DNA of 8,354 nt, from positions 1-8,354 of the IMG/VR virus record IMGVR_UViG_2671180574_000007, one strand, 5' to 3'. The position numbers and the translations under genes are program-made. The notes under the pieces are model-generated. The model made no database searches and had not been told where the DNA came from. It worked only from the letters and a program-made list of their open reading frames with translations. The stretch is from a virus (Duplodnaviria > Heunggongvirae > Uroviricota > Caudoviricetes). Within the stretch, counting starts at the first letter, position 1. Every line of letters begins with the position of its first letter. This document shows positions 147 to 8,354 of this stretch, in pieces.

Positions 147-266
147 ATGACTGAAATCGCGTCAGTACAGTAAACGCGCTGGTGGCGGTGAATACCTGTC
201 TTTCAGCTTGCTGGCTTTTTCGACAAGAGTTATTGGTGTGTCACGTTAACCGGAAAAGGAAAAGAC

Positions 267-464
267 ATGCTAAAACAGCAGGATATGACAGAAACCGCCA
301 GAGTGGTGTTTAATGAATTAAGCGTTACCGAACCGGCGACAGTCGGGGAGATAGCGCAGAATACTTACCTTTCACGCGAACGCTGCCAGTTAATACTGAC
401 CCAGCTGGTTATGGCGGGTCTGGCAGACTATCAGTTCGGTTGTTACAGACGCCTTCCGCAGTGA
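267..464 (+). CDS. Small winged-helix DNA-binding protein, FaeA/PapI-like (hypothetical regulator, 65 aa)
   Basis: ATG with AGGA-type Shine-Dalgarno about 8 nt upstream; pattern VVFNEL...TVGEIAQNTYLSRERCQLILTQLVMAGL resembles PapI/FaeA-type small winged-helix regulators; intrinsic terminator overlaps the stop codon. Confidence 0.5.
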   Translation: MLKQQDMTETARVVFNELSVTEPATVGEIAQNTYLSRERCQLILTQLVMAGLADYQFGCYRRLPQ

Positions 465-476
465 AGGCTTTTTTAT
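450..476 (+). terminator. Rho-independent terminator overlapping the stop of the 65-aa ORF
   Basis: Perfect 6-bp stem gccttc(451-456)/gaaggc(463-468), 6-nt loop, then TTTTTT(469-474)ATTTG. Confidence 0.65.
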
Positions 477-493
477 TTGTGGTAAATGGGCGG

Positions 494-582
494 CTGGTGG
501 GTGTTAGGGGCACCCACCAGCCATCTGCTCATGCGTTGGGTTCACAAGCAAACCTCAGGCCCACTGCTTTGCGCAAAAGCAG
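494..582 (+). promoter_or_regulatory. Structured leader upstream of the methyltransferase gene (two stable hairpins, neither terminator-like)
   Basis: Perfect 10-bp inverted repeat ctggtgggtg/cacccaccag (494-503/511-520, 7-nt loop) and 7-bp stem ctgcttt/aaagcag (564-570/576-582); no T-run after either. Confidence 0.4.
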
Positions 583-614
583 AATGAGCCTATCAGAGAC
601 AGGCTTAATGATCC

Positions 615-1673
615 ATGCTTAATACTGTAAAAATATCCAGTTGTGAGTTAATCAACGCCGACTGCCTGGAATTTATCCGGTCGTTACCCGAAAATTCTGT
701 TGACCTGATAGTCACGGACCCGCCGTACTTTAAAGTGAAGCCTGAGGGCTGGGATAACCAGTGGAAGGGCGACGATGATTACCTGAAGTGGCTGGACCAG
801 TGTCTGGCGCAGTTCTGGCGGGTGCTGAAACCTGCCGGAAGTCTTTACCTGTTCTGTGGTCATCGCCTGGCATCTGATATCGAAATCATGATGCGTGAAC
901 GCTTCAGTGTGCTGAACCATATTATCTGGGCGAAGCCGTCCGGACGCTGGAACGGATGCAACAAGGAAAGCCTGCGGGCGTATTTCCCCGCCACAGAGCG
1001 CATTCTGTTCGCGGAACATTATCAGGGGCCGTATCGTCCGAAAGATGCCGGGTATGCGGCGAAGGGCAGTGCACTGAAACAGCATGTGATGGCCCCGCTG
1101 ATTTCTTACTTTCGTGATGCGCGAGCTGCCCTGGGGATAACGGCAAAACAGATTGCAGATGCCACAGGAAAGAAAAACATGGTGTCGCACTGGTTCAGTG
1201 CCGGTCAGTGGCAGTTGCCGAATGAAAGCGATTATCTGAAATTACAGGCGCTGTTTGCCCGGGTGGCAGAAGAGAAGCATCGGCGTGGTGAACTGGAAAA
1301 GCTCCACCACCAGCTGGTGGATACGTATACCTCACTGAACCGGCAGTATGCGGAGCTGCTGAGTGAATATAAACATCTGCGGCGGTATTTTGGCGTGACG
1401 GTGCAGGTGCCGTATACCGATGTGTGGACGCATAAACCGGTGCAGTTCTATCCCGGGAAACATCCGTGCGAAAAACCGGCAGAAATGCTGCAGCAGATAA
1501 TCAGCGCTAGCAGTCGTCCGGGTGACCTGATTGCAGATTTTTTCATGGGGTTGGGTTCGACAGTGAAAGCGGCACTGGCGCTCGGGCGTCGTGCAATTGG
1601 CGTTGAGCTGGAGACTGAACGTTTTGAGCAGACGGTTCGGGAAGTACAGGATTTAGTCAGCCAGAACGGATGA
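615..1673 (+). CDS. DNA methyltransferase, beta-class (motif IV before motif I), probable N6-adenine specificity; orphan (no adjacent restriction enzyme)
   Basis: 352-aa ORF; N-terminal LIVTDPPYF (motif IV, DPPY) and C-terminal DFFMGLGST (motif I, FxGxG AdoMet site); central insert with HTH-like/coiled-coil segment typical of a target-recognition region. Weak Shine-Dalgarno. Confidence 0.88.
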   Translation: MLNTVKISSCELINADCLEFIRSLPENSVDLIVTDPPYFKVKPEGWDNQWKGDDDYLKWLDQCLAQFWRVLKPAGSLYLFCGHRLASDIEIMMRERFSVLNHIIWAKPSGRWNGCNKESLRAYFPATERILFAEHYQGPYRPKDAGYAAKGSALKQHVMAPLISYFRDARAALGITAKQIADATGKKNMVSHWFSAGQWQLPNESDYLKLQALFARVAEEKHRRGELEKLHHQLVDTYTSLNRQYAELLSEYKHLRRYFGVTVQVPYTDVWTHKPVQFYPGKHPCEKPAEMLQQIISASSRPGDLIADFFMGLGSTVKAALALGRRAIGVELETERFEQTVREVQDLVSQNG

Positions 1674-1713
1674 TATTGAAGAATTAATTACGCGTCGTTA
1701 TTATGCGGCTCCC

Positions 1714-1789
1714 GGCCCTTTAGCTCAGTGGTGAGAGCGAGCGACTCATAATCGCTTGGTCGTTGGTTCAAACCCAACAGGGGCCACCA
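1714..1789 (+). tRNA. tRNA with anticodon CAU, tRNA-Ile2-like (lysidine-dependent AUA decoder); elongator tRNA-Met not excluded
   Basis: Hand-folded cloverleaf: acceptor 1714-1720/1779-1785 (one G-U), D-stem gctc/gagc, anticodon stem agcga/tcgct with loop cTCATAa (anticodon 1747-1749), T-arm gttgg-ttcaaac-ccaac, discriminator A, encoded CCA. Acceptor and anticodon stems resemble E. coli ileX-type tRNA from memory. Confidence 0.85.
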
Positions 1790-1797
1790 TATCTATC

Positions 1798-1836
1798 AAG
1801 GGGTTACGTTAACAGCGTGACCCCTTCGTTTTTTCT
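1798..1836 (+). terminator. Rho-independent terminator downstream of the tRNA
   Basis: 7-bp stem aaggggt(1798-1804)/acccctt(1820-1826) with structured loop, followed by cgTTTTTT (1829-1834). Confidence 0.65.
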
Positions 1837-2115
1837 AGGATACCTATAGGATACCGTGACAGAGTATAAGCAGGTATAAAAACAACAAGTTACGCAACAT
1901 CATACCTGTCATGAAACTTTAACTATCCGACATGATAGCTGGTCGATGATCACGGATAATCCGTTATGTGGATCCCCATATCGGCATCAGGCCCACCAGC
2001 GTGAAGCGTTTTTCATTTTTCGCGGGTATAAAAAATCGATGGGGCTGGCAGTCCGGAAGACGTCAGGGTACAGAGATTTGACCCGCCCCTCCCTGTGCAT
2101 GGGCACAATAAGTAA

Positions 2116-2139
2116 CCGAAGGCGGAATTCCGCCCTCGG
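2116..2139. repeat. 24-bp near-perfect palindrome (11 of 12 pairs) centred on GAATTC
   Basis: ccgaaggcggaattccgccctcgg; T-rich flank on the minus-strand side, so it could act as a weak terminator for the convergent minus-strand cluster. Confidence 0.55.
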
Positions 2140-2172
2140 TACTCACATATGAGAAACGATATTTCTTCCTCT

Positions 2173-2253
2173 GATACCCAAAATATGGGTATCACAAGTA
2201 ACCCCCAAAATCTGGGTGTTGCTCTTACTACCCAAACTACGGGTAGTTTCCGT
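2173..2253. repeat. Three tandem 27-bp units, each containing a dyad-symmetric core ACCCAAA-N4-GGGT
   Basis: Units 2173-2199, 2200-2226, 2227-2253; cores gatacccaaaatatgggtatc (perfect 8-bp arms), aacccccaaaatctgggtgtt, actacccaaactacgggtagt; centre-to-centre spacing 27 bp. Confidence 0.7.
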
Positions 2254-2265
2254 AATTTCATGGTC

Positions 2266-2285
2266 GAGTTGCAGATCTGCAACTC
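2266..2285. repeat. Perfect 20-bp palindrome centred on AGATCT
   Basis: gagttgcagatctgcaactc, 10 of 10 pairs; no U-run on either side. Confidence 0.7.
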
Positions 2286-2330
2286 ACCCACCAGCCAACG
2301 CAATTTTGCGTTATCGGGAATATCAGCAAG

Positions 2331-2618
2331 TTACCGCCGCAGCCGTTCCGGCTTCTTCCACTGGTAAGTATTTTTCGCGCTCTCCCTCCGTTGTTGAGAA
2401 CGGCGACGGTATGCCAGCAACTCAAGGACTCTTGTTCGTATGTTGCGCATATCCACGCCGTTAAGCTCAATACCGTCACGGAGCATCACCTCAGCCACCA
2501 CACGCGCGTAATTTTCAGCGGTGACTGTATCCGGCTGCGCGGCCTGTTCGTCAGCCAACTGGCTGATTCCACCAGCACAGCGGATTAATCGCAGTATTTC
2601 AGATTCGGTCATTATCAT
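2331..2618 (-). CDS. Hypothetical 95-aa protein translationally coupled to the small terminase gene; possibly a truncated remnant
   Basis: ATG at 2616-2618 overlaps the TGA of the upstream gene (ATGA coupling); Arg-rich C-terminal tail (RRRSQQRRESAKNTYQWKKPERLRR) runs into non-coding palindromic DNA; no recognisable motif. Confidence 0.45.
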   Translation of the reverse strand: MIMTESEILRLIRCAGGISQLADEQAAQPDTVTAENYARVVAEVMLRDGIELNGVDMRNIRTRVLELLAYRRRSQQRRESAKNTYQWKKPERLRR

Positions 2619-3100
2619 GCCTGTTTTGCGACCTCATTCACTACGTCATTTTTTACCATCCGGCTGATAATCTGATTACGCAAATCGTCAATAATTGACT
2701 GCACTCTGTTTACTGCCATCGGTTTAAGCCCGGCATCACGTGCCAGAATATTGGGGAGTTTTGCCAGTTCCTCGCTTACGATTTCCCCCCATATAGCCAT
2801 CTCTTTTCGCACATCATCGGCGGGTATGAGTTGCGCCGTTTCCTGTTCGAACTTGAGGCGCTCACGTTCGGACTGATACCAGGCCTTACGGTCATGTGGC
2901 TCCATTTCTTCCAGTGATGCCGGAACGGGAAGATCAAGAAAACAGGTCAGAATGTCAGTCACCCGATAGAGTTTCAGCTTGTCATGCCCTCCGGCTGGCT
3001 GGATGTTTTTCAGCCTTGCCGCCGCAGTCTGACGACATATTCCCGCTATCGCCGCCAGTTGATTAATGTTCAGCATCAGATTTTTCAGTTCTCGATCCAT
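2615..3100 (-). CDS. Terminase small subunit, lambda Nu1-like (DNA packaging protein), about 161 aa
   Basis: Start placed at the internal ATG (3098-3100) preceded by GGAG 5 nt upstream; the six-frame ORF extends to 3187 without a Shine-Dalgarno. N-terminal HTH pattern LNINQLAAIAGICRQTAAARLKN...GG..KL.LY and downstream helical region align by eye with lambda Nu1. Confidence 0.65.
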   Translation of the reverse strand: MDRELKNLMLNINQLAAIAGICRQTAAARLKNIQPAGGHDKLKLYRVTDILTCFLDLPVPASLEEMEPHDRKAWYQSERERLKFEQETAQLIPADDVRKEMAIWGEIVSEELAKLPNILARDAGLKPMAVNRVQSIIDDLRNQIISRMVKNDVVNEVAKQA

Positions 3101-3371
3101 ACCCGCTCCAGAATGTTTTAAACATGCATCTTGCGAACAACTTTCAGAAGAGTTCAAAAAATGCGCTATATGTTGAGCATAAAACAAGCAAAACTAACAT
3201 ACCAAAAATAAAAATACTTAAAATTCAATATCATATGAAGATGATGATGACGAATGAAAATGCAAAAACTAGCCTTTTTCCGCGCCGCTCCCGCCCCGCG
3301 GCAGGCCACCTCACCGGGAGGACCCACCCAAAAAAGGCGACTGTCACTATTGTTTATGCTCCATGAGCGAC

Positions 3372-3393
3372 AAAACCGCCCGCAGGCGGTTTT
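3372..3393. terminator. Bidirectional intrinsic terminator hairpin
   Basis: aaaaccgcc-cgca-ggcggtttt: 9-bp stem including A/T arms, 4-nt loop; T-run on both strands; lies about 18 nt downstream of the gpI-like stop on the minus strand. Confidence 0.65.
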
Positions 3394-3410
3394 ACATAAA
3401 ACGTTTTGTA

Positions 3411-4052
3411 TCAGCGACCAATCACCACAATCTGGCCGCCATCCCCTTCATCTGCCGTGCTGATCTCTTGCGAAATCACCCGCGACCCGACGCGCATTTC
3501 ACCGTACAGAACAGGCACAACATTGCCCTGGGCAACCATGTTATCCAGAGAGGAGAAATAGGTGTTCTGCTTACCGTTATCCGTGGTGCTGGCTGTTGCT
3601 GTGCTGGCTTTCGGTGCCAGCATCTGTGCAACACCACCAAGTGTCATCGCCGCCCCCATTGAAAAGAGAATGTCACTGAAAGCGATACTGATTCCTGGCA
3701 TCCAGATTGCCGTAGCAATCAGCGCCGCACCAAGCACCGCCTGAAACACGCCGCCACTTTTGGCACCAGCCAGACGCGGTACGATGTGGATCACGGCACC
3801 ATTTTCCAGCGGTTCATTAAGACGGGCTGATAATTCGTTTTCGCCTGTATCACGCCCGGCAATACGCACCTGATACCAACCATCGCTCAGTTTCTGACGA
3901 AACGCTGGGATCTGCATGGCCAGCGCCCGGATGGCTTCGGCCCCCGTTTTCACATGAAGATCGATGCGGCGGCCAAATCGTTGTAAATCCCCGTAAAGGC
4001 AGATGCGTGCCATGCCCGGTGACGCCAGAGGGAGTGTGTGCGTCGCTGCCAT
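3411..4052 (-). CDS. Phage lambda gpI-like tail (tip) assembly protein
   Basis: 213-aa ORF with N-terminal ubiquitin-like region, central hydrophobic Gly/Ala-rich segment and C-terminal block TTDNGKQNTYFSSLDNMVAQGNV.PVLYGEMRVGSRV.SQEISTADEG that matches lambda tail assembly protein I as recalled from memory; GAGAGG Shine-Dalgarno about 10 nt upstream. Confidence 0.6.
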   Translation of the reverse strand: MAATHTLPLASPGMARICLYGDLQRFGRRIDLHVKTGAEAIRALAMQIPAFRQKLSDGWYQVRIAGRDTGENELSARLNEPLENGAVIHIVPRLAGAKSGGVFQAVLGAALIATAIWMPGISIAFSDILFSMGAAMTLGGVAQMLAPKASTATASTTDNGKQNTYFSSLDNMVAQGNVVPVLYGEMRVGSRVISQEISTADEGDGGQIVVIGR

Positions 4053-4141
4053 TTGTCGGTATACCTCTCTCGTTTGCTCAGTTGTTCAGGAATATGGTGC
4101 GGCAGCTCGCCGCCCCACGTGTTCAAAGTACCGCCTTGTTG

Positions 4142-6055
4142 TCATGCTCCATTCGATTTCAGCAATCCACGATAATCGAGGGCCGCGACACCTGCATCTA
4201 TGCGCACCTTCCAGGCGACACCATCAACAGTAAAGCCCACCTGCTCCTCAAGATATGGCGTATCCATACCATCAAGATAAGCGACTTCTATTGTGTCCAT
4301 CCCCTTAGCTGCGGCTACATACCATTCCTTGCTATTGGCCTTATCAAGACGTGGCTCAACAATTACTTCTGCCATATCTTTCACAACGTTAATGATGCCG
4401 GGGTTCTGATTGATAGTGCCCTCATCACCAACCGGAAAGACTGATGACGATGACAGAATGGCGCGACGCGCGGCAGATTCCAGCGCGGCAGGGACCAGAA
4501 CAAAAGCAGGGGTAATATTCAGTGAGTCGCCGTTAGCATCCTCCTGGAGGCGCATCAGCTTACGGGCTTCATCAAGCCCCACCATGTCCATATCCTTCGC
4601 AATAAGATTTTTATGATCGGCATGGAATAACGCTTTACCATCCGTAAACTTGCCGTTGCTGGTTAACAGGAGATAAACCAGATTGCCAACTGTTCTGGCG
4701 GCTGCGCGTCCCATCGCCATGGGGATTGTAGTTAACTGGGTCAGGTCATCGTTGATAATGGCCTGACGGGTAACGGAAAAAATATTCCCGTACGTGGCCA
4801 GCGCAATAGGTACACCTTTATCGCTGGTGGTGATGTATTTATATTCCGCACCTTCCGGTACTTTATCCAGCTTTGAAAAACCATTCAGACCAACGCGCTT
4901 TGCTTCATGAAAGTTTGAAAGCGAACCGGTACGCGTCCATTTCTGGAACGTTTCGCCGCTGTCCTGCCAGCCTTTCAGTACAGATTTTTCAGCCCCACCA
5001 GCCAGAATATGAGAAAAATCACTGCTGCTGTGTGTAAAAGCCGCATTAACAACCTGCGAGCGATTAATAAAACCACTCACAGTGATACCACGATCAACCA
5101 GTGATGCCTGGGCCATTTCAAAAAGGCTCATCATCGCGTAAGGGTTGCCTCGTTCAGGGCGTTCATACCCAAGACGGGAATAAAGCCCCTGACGAATTGC
5201 ATCACCTGTTATGTTTCCGTTTCCGGCATAGATATGAGGCGGGGTATTTTTATTGGATGGCGTGGACTCGCGCCCCAGCTCGTTCAACAGCTTTTCACGG
5301 GCCATTTCCGGTGTACATGATGCATCTTCCAGACACGCCATTTTGATCCCGTCGTAACGACTGCCGAACAGGCTAAACACTTCACTTATTCCATTGATGC
5401 GTTTCTGTTCATTACCAGCAATATTTGCCGCTCCCTGTGGCGGTGTAATCATTCCTTTAATGGTTTCCGGCATATGTAAAAAATCTCCTGTGCGCTTCGA
5501 TTCAATTCGCGCCATTGCTCTGACGGATGGCAACAATTCATCAGCAAAACCGTGCTTAAGGCATTCTTTCCCGTCCATCCAGGTTTCATCTTCCAGCATG
5601 GCGGTAATTTCCTGTGCTGATTTGCCCGTTTTTCTGGCATAAGCAGGGACTAACACGGTTTCCACCTTATCCAGCAAATCAGCATAATCACGCATATCAC
5701 CAGCATTTCCGCCAGAGATACCCCACGGCTTATGTATCATCATCATGGCGTTTTCCGGCATCACAACACGATCGCCAGCCATTGCGACCACCGAAGCCAT
5801 TGAAGCCGCAACACCATCGATATAAACCGTAATGTCTGCCGGATGATTCCGTAGCAGGTTATAGATGGCGATGCCTTCAAACACATCACCACCTGGTGAA
5901 TGGATCCTCAGATTGATATGTGAAACATCGCCAAGGGCTTTCAGGTCTTCCGCGAACTGCTTTGCAGTAACACCGAAGCCGCCAATCTCCTCATAGATAG
6001 ATATATCCGCCGCTCCGCGAACATCCGCCGCCTTAATGGTGTACCAGCGATTCAT
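4142..6055 (-). CDS. Fusion protein: ClpP-like (S14) prohead protease N-terminal domain plus HK97-fold major capsid protein C-terminal domain
   Basis: 637 aa; N-terminal ...LRIHSPGGDVFEGIAIYN...GVAASMASVV...MMIHKPWG... carries ClpP catalytic Ser/His context; C-terminal roughly 330 aa has capsid-like architecture (motif-level assignment, weaker); ATGA overlap with upstream small ORF. Confidence 0.75.
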   Translation of the reverse strand: MNRWYTIKAADVRGAADISIYEEIGGFGVTAKQFAEDLKALGDVSHINLRIHSPGGDVFEGIAIYNLLRNHPADITVYIDGVAASMASVVAMAGDRVVMPENAMMMIHKPWGISGGNAGDMRDYADLLDKVETVLVPAYARKTGKSAQEITAMLEDETWMDGKECLKHGFADELLPSVRAMARIESKRTGDFLHMPETIKGMITPPQGAANIAGNEQKRINGISEVFSLFGSRYDGIKMACLEDASCTPEMAREKLLNELGRESTPSNKNTPPHIYAGNGNITGDAIRQGLYSRLGYERPERGNPYAMMSLFEMAQASLVDRGITVSGFINRSQVVNAAFTHSSSDFSHILAGGAEKSVLKGWQDSGETFQKWTRTGSLSNFHEAKRVGLNGFSKLDKVPEGAEYKYITTSDKGVPIALATYGNIFSVTRQAIINDDLTQLTTIPMAMGRAAARTVGNLVYLLLTSNGKFTDGKALFHADHKNLIAKDMDMVGLDEARKLMRLQEDANGDSLNITPAFVLVPAALESAARRAILSSSSVFPVGDEGTINQNPGIINVVKDMAEVIVEPRLDKANSKEWYVAAAKGMDTIEVAYLDGMDTPYLEEQVGFTVDGVAWKVRIDAGVAALDYRGLLKSNGA

Positions 6056-6261
6056 TGTTCCCCCACCGATGCAAAACCATTCTGATTAAGCCAGGTGTTT
6101 ACGGCATGTCTGACAATCTGCGCCACACCTGGTAATGGTTGGTCAGGATGATGATTTATATGGTCGATCCTGTACTGCTTAAGGCGCATAACGGTCTGCG
6201 CATCCAGATGAACGGAACCACCTCTGGTATCACCTGTGTTCAGGTCATTAATACAACTCAC
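6052..6261 (-). CDS. Hypothetical 69-aa protein, first gene of the capsid operon
   Basis: GTG start with strong GAGGAAG Shine-Dalgarno 5 nt upstream; stop overlaps the fusion-gene ATG; AT-rich putative promoter region upstream (6262-6360). Confidence 0.55.
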   Translation of the reverse strand: MSCINDLNTGDTRGGSVHLDAQTVMRLKQYRIDHINHHPDQPLPGVAQIVRHAVNTWLNQNGFASVGEQ

Positions 6262-6361
6262 AGCAACTTCCTCTGACTGACTAAACTATGCACATTATTG
6301 ATCTATAAAAGTGGTAAATAAACATATTTCTATCATAAAAACAGATTAATTAGATTCAGAC

Positions 6362-6387
6362 ACAAAAAAGCCGGATTTCTCCGGCTT
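6362..6387 (-). terminator. Rho-independent terminator on the minus strand between the origin and the capsid operon
   Basis: 8-bp stem aagccgga/tccggctt (6368-6375/6380-6387), 4-nt loop; on the minus strand followed by TTTTTTGTG. Confidence 0.7.
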
Positions 6388-6514
6388 CTGTCACTCGTTG
6401 CTTAAAACGGTATGTTATCCCCGTACGGATCATCATTCCCCGCCTGTTGTTTTGGTGTGCTTCGCTGTCATAGGCTTTATCTCACAGCAGTAAATTAAAA
6501 TTTTTGCGTTTTAA

Positions 6515-6745
6515 CCCTTCACCTGTTCACCTTTTGATATTTTCTCTATTAATTCATAATGTTAAGGGGTGAACAGTTTCAAAAAAACTATTCACCAACT
6601 GTTCACCACTGTTCACCCTTGAAGCTCAATAAACAATCAAAAAGGTGAACAGTGAATAGTTTGGTGAACAGTTCATAAATAACTGCTCACCCTATAATAT
6701 ACTGATATAAAAGATATTTATGACAGGGTGAACAGTGGTGAACAG
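6515..6745. repeat. Iteron cluster: putative P4-type replication origin (octamer TGTTCACC / GGTGAACA)
   Basis: Perfect octamers at 6524-6531(+), 6568-6575(-), 6600-6607(+), 6610-6617(+), 6644-6651(-), 6663-6670(-), 6727-6734(-), 6737-6744(-), plus degenerate copies (6517-6523, 6590-6596, 6652-6659, 6684-6691); AT-rich flanks; directly downstream of the primase stop. Confidence 0.8.
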
Positions 6746-6758
6746 TTATTCCATAAGT

Positions 6759-8354
6759 TTAATTTTTGCTATCGTCATTAGTGACCGATACACATGATGG
6801 CATCCAGTCTTCTGATTCCTCCGTCAGTGTCACGTTTGAACGCAAACCGTGCTTCGTTTTCCGTTTCATATACTCCCTGCCATATTCCGCCATTGCCCCC
6901 GGCATATCTTTACCGAAGCGCGTCAGTGTTACAGGTTTACCAAACCCATGTGCCCTCATATAAGCCAGATAGGCATGATAGAGATACCTGCGTGGGCTGA
7001 ATGGCACAATTTCAGCATTACCCACTAACAGGCCATCACACATTACCGACGCCATGAGATAGCCGCAGAAGTCCACCAGCGAATCCCCCTCTCGCTTTAT
7101 CGCCAGTGCTTCTTCAGATTTCTGCTGCTCATATAACAGGCGTCTGGCTTCGTCCTGGTCAGCAAACCGTGTAAGCAGATGGCGAATCACTACCGCCAGC
7201 TCACCTTCTATTTTTTCCGCCAGCATTGGATCACGTTCGTTCTCCGGTACAACTTCCGAAAAATTGAATATCACCCGACGACGTGAGATCCCCCCACTGC
7301 GGTCACTGAATGACATGGCGTTATTGTTAACCGCCAGCACTACTGCCGGAATACGCGTTGAGTAGGGGGCTTTGTGTTTCGGGTCAATTGCCACCTTGTC
7401 ACCGCCTGTAATAGCCTTAATCCCTGCCCCATCACCAGCGTAGCGGGTCATATCCGGCATGATAATCAGCGAAAAGCCAACCACTAACGCGCGTTCCCTT
7501 GCATCTTCCAGCGCCTTCATGCTTGCCGATACTGTGTTGGCCTTACCCGCCAGCATGGTGCAAATCTCCGCCATCACGCTTTTACCACTTCCCCCTGGAC
7601 CTGTTACCTCAATGAATAACTGCCAGTCGTACCGGTTCGCCAGCACCATGAATAATGCAGCCAGTACGCGATCCGCCTTGCGGTCATTCTCAGCCACCGA
7701 ACGGCGTAACCACTTCCAGAAATTCGGCGCATGTGTTGCCAGCGTTTCCCCCTCTGCTGGTGGGCTGAAAGGTAATTCACTGGCAATTAACAACCAGTCG
7801 TTTTTGTTATGCTCCCGAAAATTACCTGTTCTGGTATCAAATACCCCGTTACTGAATCCAATCAGGTTACGGGCTGTATTCCCCATAACAGGCAAACTTA
7901 ACTTCATGGTATCGACCGCCGATTTAATGGCGTTCTGCGAATAGCTGATCTCCGCATCAATGAAAATCTGCGCCATAGCTCGCTGTAATTCTTTATCCTG
8001 TACTGGCTCCCATACAACGCCGTTGTAATGGTGAACAGTGTCAGAGTCAGCATGAATCGCCAGTTCACCGCCATAATGTGCCAGGAGAACTTCGCCGCGT
8101 TGACTTGCTCCCATCTGGTTAAGCGCCAGTGATGAAGCGTTATCGTCTTTTACCCGCTCTTTTTTCTTTACAGGCAGTTCAACTACCTTTTTCTTTTCCG
8201 CCAGCTCTGCCCGTTCACGTTCCAGATATTCACGCCAGTTCTCCCGTTTCTGGCTGTGCATTCCTTCAGGGTAATAATCAGCATCCCTGACACCTGCCTC
8301 TGCCAGTTTCTGCCCGATGGTATTAACAAGCCCCGGACGCAATAACCCCGCCTG
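6759..8354 (-). CDS. Primase/helicase of the phage-plasmid P4 alpha family (C-terminal part; N-terminus beyond the window end)
   Basis: Reading frame stays open to the window edge (the 8342 start in the ORF track is a TTG, not the true start); Walker A GPGGSGKS; stop TAA at 6759-6761; followed by matching iterons. Confidence 0.85.
   Translation of the reverse strand, partial: QAGLLRPGLVNTIGQKLAEAGVRDADYYPEGMHSQKRENWREYLERERAELAEKKKVVELPVKKKERVKDDNASSLALNQMGASQRGEVLLAHYGGELAIHADSDTVHHYNGVVWEPVQDKELQRAMAQIFIDAEISYSQNAIKSAVDTMKLSLPVMGNTARNLIGFSNGVFDTRTGNFREHNKNDWLLIASELPFSPPAEGETLATHAPNFWKWLRRSVAENDRKADRVLAALFMVLANRYDWQLFIEVTGPGGSGKSVMAEICTMLAGKANTVSASMKALEDARERALVVGFSLIIMPDMTRYAGDGAGIKAITGGDKVAIDPKHKAPYSTRIPAVVLAVNNNAMSFSDRSGGISRRRVIFNFSEVVPENERDPMLAEKIEGELAVVIRHLLTRFADQDEARRLLYEQQKSEEALAIKREGDSLVDFCGYLMASVMCDGLLVGNAEIVPFSPRRYLYHAYLAYMRAHGFGKPVTLTRFGKDMPGAMAEYGREYMKRKTKHGLRSNVTLTEESEDWMPSCVSVTNDDSKN

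Follow-up and report, generated by a model that had tools for sequence, protein, structure and literature searches.

Between positions 2116 and 2285 of an 8,354-nt stretch of viral DNA (called the window throughout), a first-pass annotation had recorded a 24-bp palindrome, three dyads phased at 27 bp and a perfect 20-bp palindrome, and all of them lie exactly where it placed them. The question raised by this locus is what so much symmetric sequence does in one short intergenic stretch. Cooperative binding of a dimeric regulator, a recombination or boundary site, and a structured RNA had been offered as answers, in preference to simple terminators.

RESULTS

The palindromes lie in the 3′ trailer of a satellite's late operon

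Everything to the right of ∼1745–1790 is a ∼10.8-kb Gram-negative PICI-type phage satellite, inserted in a prophage-borne tRNA(CAU). Its genes are all on the minus strand, and the gene set comprises an integrase, AlpA, an Icd-like protein, a DUF4222 protein, a P4-type primase, a protease/capsid fusion, terS and p95. Homology to Stx phages stops at 1793. Compared with the chromosomal ileX copy, the prophage tRNA has a different 5′ half but the same sequence from the anticodon loop onward, and the 3′ half, from ∼1745, was contributed by the satellite. The junction between convergent gene sets that had been noted here is real, but the element itself ends at the att site in the tRNA (∼1745–1790), ∼330–400 bp to the left of the palindrome region.

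In a circular 10,790-bp copy of the element, of the NZ_CP148328-like type, the order is p95, cassette (the dyads and the 20-bp palindrome, see below), 24-bp palindrome, cos, Chi, attP, int. In the direction of minus-strand transcription, the trailer reads p95, hairpin Ha, Chi, 20-bp palindrome, dyads 3, 2 and 1, 24-bp palindrome, P27/SfII-type cos and attP (Table 1). The palindrome region makes up the non-coding trailer at the 3′ end of the late (capsid/packaging) operon of the satellite. That no credible ORF covers it holds in so far as there is no coding signature, although mechanical ORFs do span it (2149–2367 on the plus strand, 72 aa; 2013–2303 on the minus strand, 96 aa).

Two cos sites are present in the window. 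For the helper-type cos, the regions compared were non-coding genome ends or HNH–TerS intergenic regions, with a ‘cos-site’ annotated in phiP27, and the equivalent of the annotated 10-nt cohesive end of phiP27 is at 2041–2050. An A-tract (∼2026–2036) lies on the TerS side of this cos, and the site of HK97-type TerS is an A-tract 15–29 bp from the cut (PMC11331095). P27/SfII-type phages have the order HNH, cos, TerS, and the dyads fall on the HNH side. The second cos was assigned by alignment with the regions upstream of terS in mEp460 and 569R4, and it resembles the lambda cosQ/cosN strings in the supplement of PMC6092414.

Chi sites number 12 in the window versus 0.27 expected, while satellite ends carry on average ∼1.5 per 700 nt or less; the two that flank the palindrome region are both outside the dyads, just beyond 2116–2285. 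Given the established polarity of RecBCD and Chi, the site at 2288–2295 would be oriented to act on RecBCD that enters at the P27-type cos cut and moves into the satellite. Apart from the palindromes, the element is noteworthy for carrying two types of cos, for its Chi-rich ends and for having inserted into a prophage tRNA.

Table 1. Features of the window, numbered from its first base
Feature	Position	Strand	Remarks
tRNA(CAU) gene of host prophage	1714–1789	+	ARAGORN and Rfam; attachment site of the satellite
Chi site GCTGGTGG	1993–2000	−	Exact; att side of cos
Helper-type cos, P27/SfII/ST64B family	2011–2093		92–95% identity to SfII, ST64B, 720R4, phiP27
Near-palindrome, 24 bp, CCGAAGGCGGAATTCCGCCCTCGG	2116–2139	−	One mismatch
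Small palindrome CTCACATATGAG	2142–2153		Overlaps AGAAACGATATTTCT
Small palindrome AGAAACGATATTTCT	2152–2166		Overlaps CTCACATATGAG
Dyad 1, GATACCC-N7-GGGTATC	2173–2193		Core 2176–2190; 17-nt unit 2175–2191
Dyad 2, core CCCA-AAATC-TGGG	2200–2220		Core 2203–2217; 17-nt unit 2202–2218
Dyad 3, CTACCC-AAACTAC-GGGTAG	2228–2246		Core 2230–2244; 17-nt unit 2229–2245
Perfect 20-bp palindrome GAGTTGCAGATCTGCAACTC	2266–2285		GATC at centre
Chi site GCTGGTGG	2288–2295	−	Exact; directly abuts 20-bp palindrome
Hairpin Ha AACGCAATTTTGCGTT	2297–2312	−	Begins 18 nt past p95 stop codon
p95 gene	2331–2618	−	Last gene of late operon; 95-aa orphan, Arg-rich C-terminus (..YRRRSQQRRESAKNTYQWKKPERLRR); phrog_1561
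Satellite small terminase	2615–3100	−	DUF1441 / phrog_141
Second cos, lambda/mEp460-like	3280–3326	−	cosQ-like + cosN-like; upstream of satellite terS
Replication origin	6510–6760		Inverted sets of GGTGAACAG / CTGTTCACC iterons; just downstream of primase gene

Three unequal dyads at a fixed spacing

The 24-bp palindrome extends to 13-nt arms at 2115–2140 with 92% complementarity. In alignments, the two small palindromes beside it are kept together with it, and they are predicted to fold as hairpins. The dyads start 27 and 27 bp apart and are unequal, with stems of 7–8 bp (GATACCC/GGGTATC), 4 bp (CCCA/TGGG) and 6 bp (CTACCC/GGGTAG). The motif ACCCAAA-N4-GGGT is exact in copies 1 and 3, and copy 2 has one mismatch (CCCCAAA). 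With up to one mismatch it has four matches in the window versus 0.20 expected, a number reached by none of 200 shuffles; the looser ACCC-N7-GGGT gave no further copy in the window or in the complete 10.8-kb circular element. Dyad 3 overlaps a further dyad, AAACTAC-GG-GTAGTTT at 2234–2249, and variants with a 9-bp deletion retain only this one.

For the cooperative dimeric regulator, no positive support was obtained: the dyads are non-equivalent and ∼2.6 turns apart, the motif occurs nowhere else in the element, and we found no partner that co-varies with it.

The cassette is satellite-specific and strongly constrained

The three dyads (as 27-nt units) and the 20-bp palindrome form a satellite-specific cassette of ∼115 bp. 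It is common to classical, helper-embedded and capsid-forming PICIs (cf-PICIs), which differ in integrases, capsid modules and terminases, and the att sites of its carriers are in tRNA genes, tqsA and prophage late genes. Of 118 contexts, 114 have a p95 homologue 50–850 nt upstream of the cassette, and three of the remaining four are truncated contigs. This linkage holds with DUF1441 TerS, with the P27-type TerS/TerL/HNH set, with another TerS, or with none. The stretch is non-random and tied to a mobile element, as had been suspected, and not a widespread non-specific intergenic repeat.

A search for more divergent copies with nhmmer over 212 loci returned only the known ones and reverse-strand self-matches, and a scan of species-representative genomes gave two p95 loci, neither with the cassette. 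At a 47%-identical p95 locus, other hairpin units stand in its place. The cassette sequences were not found in the literature searched, the PICI and cf-PICI papers making no mention of them.

Cassette identity (0.81–0.98) exceeded identity at p95 third codon positions (0.51–0.88) in 15 of 15 pairwise comparisons, and in almost all pairs it exceeded identity at p95 positions 1+2 as well. Divergence of the cassette tracks that of p95, with lineage L006 the most divergent in both. Because divergence follows p95 and conservation is above that of p95 non-synonymous positions, purifying selection is indicated, not only recent spread. A neutral relic was rejected since cassette conservation exceeds that of p95 codon positions.

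The constraint is spread over nearly the whole cassette. Dyad 1 has conserved arms around 7 central nt that vary freely, dyad 2 is nearly invariant with its centre included, the centre of dyad 3 is also invariant, and the 20-bp palindrome is nearly invariant across unique variants. Linkers between the hairpins are conserved as strongly as the stems. In the unique variants examined, where divergence is low, the dyads keep their 27-bp spacing throughout and no indels fall between them.

The same cassette is bordered by five or more unrelated sequences on the left and by five or more on the right. Four loci have two cassettes, 434 bp apart, which bracket an inserted second cos with iterons; in these loci each cassette has a cos site beside or near it, two in all. 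One cf-PICI (L005) has a cos-like sequence of its own, which lies between hnh and terS at a distance of 2.6 kb from the cassette, thus the cassette need not adjoin cos.

The protein p95 has 852 database entries and gave no match in Pfam, NCBIfam or PDB; the matches listed in the PDB sequence search were weak ankyrin-repeat ones, judged spurious, and RppC was not among them. Its AlphaFold2 model has three predicted helices (pLDDT 72), with no fold match (best E 2.3). In EcCICFT073, too, p95 is the last gene. Some closely related p95 alleles are accompanied by the cassette and others are not (e.g. that of EcCICFT073), hence no co-variation backs p95 binding. Several loci have repeated remnants of p95 3′ ends downstream of the gene.

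The 24-bp palindrome looks like a terminator

The first-pass annotation had set the palindromes apart from simple terminators, and for one of them this is not supported. On the minus strand, the 24-bp palindrome scores as an intrinsic terminator in a terminator scan (11 pairs, 8 of them GC, loop AATT, tail TACTTATTGT), and both the last operon gene and the cassette lie immediately before it. The corresponding place in cf-PICI contexts is taken by another hairpin, followed by GCTTTT (a U-run), and lineage L006 has an equivalent hairpin without a U-run. The U-tract of the terminator is weak (UUACUUAUU). Judged from its sequence, the 24-bp palindrome looks like the intrinsic terminator of the late operon. 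Neither strand has a T-run at the three dyads or the 20-bp palindrome.

A proposed role of the cassette as transcribed stem-loops

The 236-nt stretch folds far better than its shuffles, with z = −8.4 (−101 kcal/mol) on the minus strand and z = −6.9 on the plus strand. Rfam 15 covariance models gave no match in 2100–2330 at E ≤ 1 on either strand. Ha has at least five sequence types, all palindromic, whose pairs covary in RNAalifold, and in 17 of 23 variants the better fold is that of the sense (minus) strand, with the aid of G·U pairs. In the cassette, one compensatory change was found in dyad 1 (A-T to C-G) and one in the 20-bp palindrome, where one lineage has a symmetric double change from GCAGATCTGC to GCAAATTTGC. 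The RNAalifold covariation term is −0.1, double changes occur in only 5 of 40 pairs, mostly in Ha and dyad 1, and wobble pairs in the cassette have no clear strand asymmetry. That compensatory events are only two and without strand bias is due to the low divergence.

The explanation that we favour, though tentatively and well short of conviction, is that the cassette is a set of transcribed stem-loops closing or stabilising the late mRNA, possibly bound by p95. We infer transcription of the region, hairpin formation in the RNA and any role of p95. The transcript would run from p95 through Ha, the 20-nt palindrome and dyads 3, 2 and 1 to the 24-bp palindrome, which would serve as intrinsic terminator. 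The ∼115-bp cassette would be part of the transcript and would function at the RNA level, its successive stem-loops sealing and shielding the 3′ end of the late mRNA and keeping read-through from reaching cos, attP and int; the Arg-rich p95, encoded immediately upstream, may bind this RNA. The hairpin reading is suggested because the arms of dyad 1 are kept around a free centre, compensatory changes occur, and the stem of Ha is kept through sequence turnover. A structured RNA is the best supported of the options offered earlier; against it stand the minimal covariation in the cassette, the stem of only 4 bp in dyad 2, the empty Rfam search and the weak U-tract.

The likeness is to the REP-type 3′ stabilisers of Escherichia coli operons, which share a series of hairpins after the last ORF of a long unidirectional operon, a GC-rich stem and a U-rich tail, and a hairpin next to the stop codon (here Ha) that keeps its structure while its sequence turns over. 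However, REP elements are dispersed through the genome, whereas the cassette is specific to one satellite group and linked to one gene, and its primary sequence, linkers included, is conserved beyond the need of a stabiliser. Simple stabiliser hairpins would not call for linkers as conserved as the stems.

A more elaborate form, in which the cassette and p95 make up a ribonucleoprotein switch, is distinctly unlikely. The Arg-rich tail of p95 would sit on boxB-sized stem-loops and control read-through into cos, attP and int in the manner of N or Nun; alternatively, a stable 3′-derived small RNA would act on the helper phage or host. Like lambda N and HK022 Nun, p95 is a small protein with an Arg-rich, predicted helical tail (RRRSQQRRESAK..YQWKK), beside 15-nt units, and dyads 1 and 2 have a CCC/GGG stem core and a 5-nt loop. 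The comparison with N/Nun and boxB is one of resemblance only: the Arg/Trp register of p95 differs from that of N, the cassette loops are not GNRA-like, and the hairpins are at the end of an operon, not after an early promoter.

A DNA-level array is the main rival

If the cassette does not act as stem-loops in RNA, it might act as DNA, a reading that is possible though we doubt it. A dimeric or ring-shaped protein (p95, a helper or a host factor) would occupy the three ACCC-N7-GGGT sites and the 20-bp palindrome, and could aid termination of packaging at cos, shield the DNA end, or organise the cos–attP region. The cassette would be at the last-packaged genome end, the one that, by analogy with lambda, would be injected first. 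Dyad symmetry, the conserved half-sites and free spacer of dyad 1, the invariant 27-bp spacing (though at low divergence) and the conservation of nearly every base, linkers included, are as expected for bound DNA. In the window the cassette is 80–240 bp from a bona fide helper-type cos, on the last-packaged side; two-cassette loci have two cos sites, each by a cassette; and proteins are often encoded beside their sites, as p95 would be in 114 of 118 contexts.

However, the dyads are not equivalent (stems of 7, 4 and 6 bp; centres invariant in 2 and 3, free in 1), and 27 bp (∼2.6 helical turns) puts neighbouring sites on different sides of the helix. The terminase systems found alongside the cassette are unrelated, or there is none, and in a cf-PICI 2.6 kb separate it from the cos of the element. 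The likely helper TerS site, the A-tract, is across the cut in the conserved cos core, and the p95 model has no recognisable DNA-binding fold. EcCICFT073 transfers via cos1 and cos2, upstream of p95, without the cassette (PMC6092414).

The nearest parallels are the R sites of lambda cosB and the cosB of EcCICFT073, the latter divergent and read by an Rpp–TerS complex (Fillol-Salom 2018, 2019). Similar are three repeats near cos in a PICI with a small satellite protein beside them, and a satellite-specific sequence that replaces that of the helper phage at this position. In contrast to cosB, the cassette is opposite the phage TerS side of the cut and occurs with several unrelated terminases. 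A cosB-type TerS array was rejected on the grounds that the cassette is not between the cos cut and terS and has no single cognate TerS family. Sites for the helper P27-type TerS are unlikely, being on the wrong side of the cut and present in satellites with other terminases. RppA is a separate Nu1-like protein, and p95 is not Rpp: the idea of an Rpp homologue acting on the dyads as cosB is not supported, since p95 has no PDB sequence or fold match, and EcCICFT073 has both RppA and p95 but no cassette. The Nu1-like RppA candidate of EcCICFT073 is a separate gene (L204, 10660–11094), and p95 is the next gene.

Recombination, plus-strand and coding readings

A recombination or boundary site had been another of the earlier proposals, and it is half right: non-homologous sequences flank the cassette on both sides Chi adjoins, and the satellite end is ∼400 bp away. 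In this form, the cassette and its flanking Chi would be a homology block for swapping end cassettes (cos types, terminators, accessory genes), with a mainly evolutionary effect and with palindromes incidental to a triplicated 27-bp unit. We consider this reading unlikely. The many unrelated left and right flanks on one cassette agree with it, two-cassette loci are the expected product of unequal crossing-over, and the Chi at 2288–2295, the Chi excess of the window and the repeated p95 3′-end remnants point the same way. Yet homology suffices for swapping without any particular sequence, while the cassette is better conserved than the non-synonymous positions of its neighbouring gene, and the preserved stems and compensatory changes are left unexplained. 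Chi-protected ends and lambdoid ‘boundary sequences’ are comparable in that Chi flanks cos and the cassette is at a mosaic junction with alternative flanks; we know of no role of the dyads or the 20-bp palindrome in RecBCD biology.

Plus-strand prophage transcription in the window is directed toward the satellite's end, and a terminator scan found a terminator-like hairpin after the tRNA at 1798–1826. A plus-strand element read by incoming transcription, as a nut-like site or a barrier to antisense transcription, is very unlikely. The comparison is with the lambda nut site, in boxA and boxB dimensions: a boxA-like GCTCTTA (2221–2227, plus strand) is immediately before dyad 3, and dyads 1 and 2, taken as 15-nt units, match lambda boxB in size (5-bp stem, A-rich loop of 5 nt), with the prophage transcription just described heading their way. 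Dyad 3 read as boxB has a mismatched fifth pair, leaving a 4-bp stem and a 7-nt loop. Against this, ∼70% of variants have ACTCTTA, not GCTCTTA, the loops (AAAUA, AAAUC, AAACUAC) are not GNRA-like, the hairpin at 1798–1826 intervenes, and no N-like gene is evident. Helper-embedded PICIs are moreover co-oriented with the late genes of the helper, in which case the plus strand would not be read (PMC10111431).

Least probable of all, to the point of being hardly credible, is a plus-strand small protein gene (2149–2367, 72 aa) in which 27 bp is nine codons (repeat SDTQNMGIT / SNPQNLGVA / LTTQTTGSF): the frame stays open across the cassette in 51 of 52 variants, three different left flanks supply an in-frame ATG and both indels are 9 bp, but variable columns at codon positions 1, 2 and 3 are 18:12:19, synonymous/non-synonymous changes (19/55) are not better than those of other frames, databases contain only 20 near-identical proteins, the majority of them partial calls from short contigs (versus 852 for p95), no match was found in PHROG, NCBIfam or by tblastn in phages, no Shine–Dalgarno sequence or promoter precedes it, and the C-terminus changes with each right flank.

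Roles as origin, att arm, TerS-specific site or coding sequence are excluded. We take TGTTCACC to be the iteron of the P4 alpha protein. Origin or crr iterons for the P4-type primase are at 6510–6760, and none were found in the repeat families of 1790–3300; in Gram-negative PICIs the ori sits downstream of pri (PMC6092414, PMC10111431). For attP arms or integrase–Xis sites, arm sites were taken as lying within ∼150 bp of the crossover core and as specific to the integrase or att type; the dyads are 385–500 bp from the tRNA att, and the same cassette occurs at several att types. Arm-like direct repeats (GGTGTAGTTAAT ×2) are elsewhere in the circular copy, and the doubled motif of helper-embedded PICIs, TGTATTGC, is a different sequence (PMC10111431). 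Type III toxin–antitoxin repeats and CRISPR-like mini-arrays were rejected by inspection only, from the 27-nt period and the lack of a downstream toxin ORF. The E. coli repeats of these kinds that we know of bear no similarity to the cassette.

DISCUSSION

PICIs carry virulence and defence genes between enterobacteria. To our knowledge, their proteins and cos sites have been studied and their non-coding ends have not. The cassette described here is constrained more strongly than the gene beside it and is linked to the orphan p95, which is also the last gene of the model element EcCICFT073. If it is a terminator region only, the finding is ordinary. If it controls the fate of the late transcript or the handling of the cos-proximal end, it would be a common control point for satellite transfer and also a handy sequence marker for such satellites.

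A satellite in the tRNA gene of a lambdoid prophage

Positions 1-1793 show ~94% identity to Stx-converting lambdoid phages and encode a DNA methylase and a tRNA. To the right of this prophage part lies a different element with all genes on the minus strand, and its gene organisation, judged from the sequence, matches the one that PMC6092414 and PMC10111431 give for phage-inducible chromosomal islands (PICIs) of Gram-negative bacteria. The same element, with 100% identity over 1900-2500, is present in E. coli DETEC-P169 at the chromosomal ileX tRNA beside mug, where it extends into DUF4222, Icd-like, YlcI and HTH genes and a tyrosine integrase. Because the 5′ halves of the prophage tRNA and ileX differ and the two become identical from the anticodon loop onward, we place the satellite boundary at ~1745-1790. 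The satellite sits in the tRNA(CAU) gene of a Stx-like lambdoid prophage (1714-1793), in an orientation opposed to the prophage genes, and the same satellite type occupies ileX beside mug in other strains; prophage transcripts toward Q would need to traverse ~11 kb of antisense satellite.

Moreover, this PICI type is present complete and in circular form as record NZ_CP148328.1 (10,790 bp), which was submitted as a non-mobilizable E. coli plasmid. Its genes run int, alpA, a number of small genes, primase, protease/capsid, I, terS and p95 (a 95-aa orphan protein), and it may be an excised or replicating PICI form caught by assembly. The replication origin, just downstream of the primase gene, consists of dense inverted arrays of GGTGAACAG / CTGTTCACC, and their core TGTTCACC is the P4 alpha iteron, which connects the PICI replicon with those of P4 type. 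The lambda tail-assembly-I-like gene, and a truncated ‘phage tail protein’ pseudogene in the DETEC-P169 copy (L001 11081-11242), look like helper-derived late genes.

Coordinates of features in the window and in compared loci (L204, EcCICFT073; L005, a capsid-forming PICI)
Feature	Window	Strand	Other loci	Remark
tRNA(CAU)	1714-1789			
24-bp near-palindrome	2116-2139			one mismatch; arms extendable to 2115-2140
Further small palindromes (three)	2142-2153, 2152-2166, 2297-2312			
17-nt unit (dyads 1, 2 and 3)	2175-2191, 2202-2218, 2229-2245			27/27 spacing
Perfect 20-bp palindrome	2266-2285			
Repeated-unit array after p95	2297-2330		L204 11656-11860; L205 4262-4700; L035/L076 6283-6700	
p95, 95-aa orphan	2331-2618	minus	L204 11374-11655; L005 8373-8654	
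DUF1441/phrog_141 small terminase (terS)	2615-3100	minus		
lambda-I-like tail-assembly gene	3411-4052	minus		
ClpP-protease/major-capsid fusion	4142-6055	minus		
Replication origin	6510-6760			
P4/D5-type primase	6759-8342	minus		

A constrained non-coding cassette specific to satellites

The three dyads and the 20-bp palindrome form a core of ~115 bp, the cassette, which is real, non-random, strongly constrained and non-coding; it occurs specifically in PICI-type satellites of enterobacteria, in linkage with an orphan gene. Both palindromes and the phased dyads described in the first-pass annotation were all recovered from the sequence of 1900-2500 with a repeat finder. With at most one mismatch, ACCCAAA-N4-GGGT occurs four times in the window versus 0.20 expected, a count that none of 200 shuffles reached, and no ACCC-N7-GGGT was found outside the three dyads in the window or the complete element copy. 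The stems of the dyads are unequal (7-8, 4 and 6 bp). Predicted folding of the 236-nt stretch is far more stable than that of shuffled sequences, with z = -8.4 for the minus and -6.9 for the plus strand. The earlier description of the region as non-coding and non-random holds. A plus-strand ORF (2149-2367), in which 27 bp equal nine codons and give a 9-aa repeat, is open in 51 of 52 variants; it was rejected as a gene since its substitutions lack codon-position or synonymous bias, and it has almost no database relatives and almost no family matches.

Cassette identity (0.81-0.98) exceeded p95 third-position identity (0.51-0.88) in all 15 pairs from six contexts, and nearly always exceeded first- and second-position identity as well, while the divergences of cassette and p95 run in parallel. 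Therefore, the cassette is under purifying selection, and a neutral relic is ruled out by its identity above that of p95 codon positions. The best conserved parts are the 20-bp palindrome and the segment spanning dyad 2 and the left arm of dyad 3; most variation falls in the first linker and in the seven central nucleotides of dyad 1.

Pieces of 2000-2335 were found in 2,327 of 5,426 complete E. coli genomes and behave as modules: cos alone (in prophages), the 24-bp palindrome with the cassette, or the cassette alone (2168-2290). Its hosts include a capsid-forming PICI (cf-PICI) in tqsA and helper-embedded PICIs (HE-PICIs) in prophage capsid or terminase genes, each time downstream of a 93-aa p95 homologue. 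Among 118 contexts, collected by a protein-seeded scan and a separate 16-mer scan of IMG/VR, a p95 homologue lies 50-850 nt from the cassette in 114, and three of the other four are truncated contigs; a widespread non-specific repeat is thus not what we observed. On its left the same core adjoins at least five flanks unrelated to one another, and on its right at least five. INPHARED phages yielded no copy and plasmid records only three, and neither the literature searched nor the PICI literature examined contains or describes the cassette. Four loci (L117, 780-1500; L098; L138; L169) carry two cassettes 434 bp apart, which flank a divergent second cos, P27-like, together with GCGGGTTAT iterons in inverted arrangement about an AT-rich stretch, an architecture that appears ori-like.

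The orphan protein p95 and the DNA behind it

p95 is the last late-operon gene in classical PICIs (including EcCICFT073), HE-PICIs and cf-PICIs; in EcCICFT073 it stands last, after RppA and an inverted cos2, without the cassette. Its 852 close database relatives fall into only 38 clusters at 50% identity, and among species-representative genomes it occurs only in Shigella and, weakly, Cedecea. Members of this conserved family (93-95 aa) share an invariant tail, YxWKKPERLRR, and are predicted to form three helices; searches for family, structure or literature annotation returned none. No PDB relative was found by sequence or by fold, on which ground p95 was rejected as Rpp, a small satellite protein acting with TerS. 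The p95 C-terminus ends in ..YRRRSQQRRESAKNTYQWKKPERLRR and is arginine-rich. N and Nun are arginine-rich proteins that pair with boxB hairpins, and with p95 ending in this way the cassette may be superficially likened to that pairing.

In many PICIs, the DNA after p95 consists of repeated units with TAACCCGTTGAT.., a hairpin and ..GCTGG(TGG); a CAAAATTG-like sequence forms the centre of this hairpin, whose stem sequence changes while pairing stays. Several loci with this array contain leftover p95 3′ ends. Downstream of p95, four GTGAC direct repeats with 10-11-bp phasing occur at L009 6520-6560 and L033/L069 6300-6345, near a GC-rich cos-like block in L033 and L069. They form a candidate protein-binding array, different from the cassette but equivalently placed.

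Possible RNA trailer or DNA-binding array

The cassette fails tests for cosB, Rpp-cosB, ori iterons, att arm sites, Rfam families and coding genes. Iterons stand at the origin instead, att arm sites would be at the wrong distance and the cassette is present with several att types, Rfam gave no known RNA family for the region, and the motif published for HE-PICIs differs in sequence. A TerS-specific cosB was rejected: the cassette flanks the P27-type cos on its HNH side, co-occurs with three terminase systems or none, and in the cf-PICI stands 2.6 kb away from the cos-like site of that element. HK97-type TerS recognises an A-tract at 15-29 bp from the cut (PMC11331095); an A-tract of this kind lies inside the conserved cos core, across the cut from the cassette.

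We rank first, tentatively, a transcribed 3′ trailer at the end of the late transcript that acts as RNA. The cassette always follows the last ORF and precedes a terminator-like hairpin in three flank types, resembling terminator-proximal stabilising stem-loops. The hairpin Ha begins 18 nt past the p95 stop and exists in at least five sequence types with the stem kept in all, and in 17 of 23 variants its G·U pairs suit the sense strand. In dyad 1 the arms are kept around a variable loop, with one A-T to C-G double change, and a symmetric change from G-C to A-T is present in the 20-bp palindrome. However, linkers are conserved to the same degree as stems, covariation within the cassette is minimal, and wobble pairs are without strand bias.

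A DNA-binding array, ranked second and rather unlikely, accounts for base-by-base conservation and fixed spacing, but its three sites are not equivalent, its phasing equals 2.6 turns and it has no co-varying partner; for these reasons the RNA trailer is placed above it, and the dimeric regulator proposed for the phased dyads is disfavoured. A recombination linker comes third and is improbable. The earlier view that the palindromes are not simple terminators is not supported for the 24-bp palindrome, an ordinary terminator-like element that a scan of the minus strand recognises as an intrinsic terminator.

Chi and cos sites at the satellite end

On the minus strand, the p95 stop is followed by Ha (2312-2297), Chi (2295-2288), the 20-bp palindrome, dyads 3, 2 and 1, two mini-palindromes, the 24-bp palindrome, the P27-type cos, a second Chi (2000-1993) and attP with the tRNA. 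The circular copy keeps this order, followed by arm-like repeats and int. Chi (GCTGGTGG) occurs 12 times (at 178-7763) in 8.35 kb versus 0.27 expected from shuffles, two minus-strand copies (1993-2000, 2288-2295) bracketing the P27-type cos, and 71 unique satellite ends (≤700 nt after p95) contain 48 sense and 59 antisense copies. This abundance suggests a role at cos-generated ends, either in RecBCD protection or in stimulating recombination.

Window 2011-2093 has 92-95% identity to non-coding genome ends or the HNH-TerS intergenic region of SfII, ST64B, 720R4 and phiP27, and the annotated 10-nt phiP27 cos aligns to 2041-2050. The cf-PICI L005 carries a cos-like sequence of its own (10,700-10,790), placed between hnh and terS, which shares the architecture of the P27-type cos (a GC-rich inverted pair with a T/A tract) and differs in sequence. 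A second, lambda/mEp460-like cos lies at ~3280-3326, upstream of the satellite's own terS. One satellite thus contains two kinds of cos, a P27/SfII/ST64B-type of the HNH-dependent family near its end and a lambda/mEp460-type cosQ-cosN upstream of the DUF1441 terS, which could broaden the range of usable helper phages.
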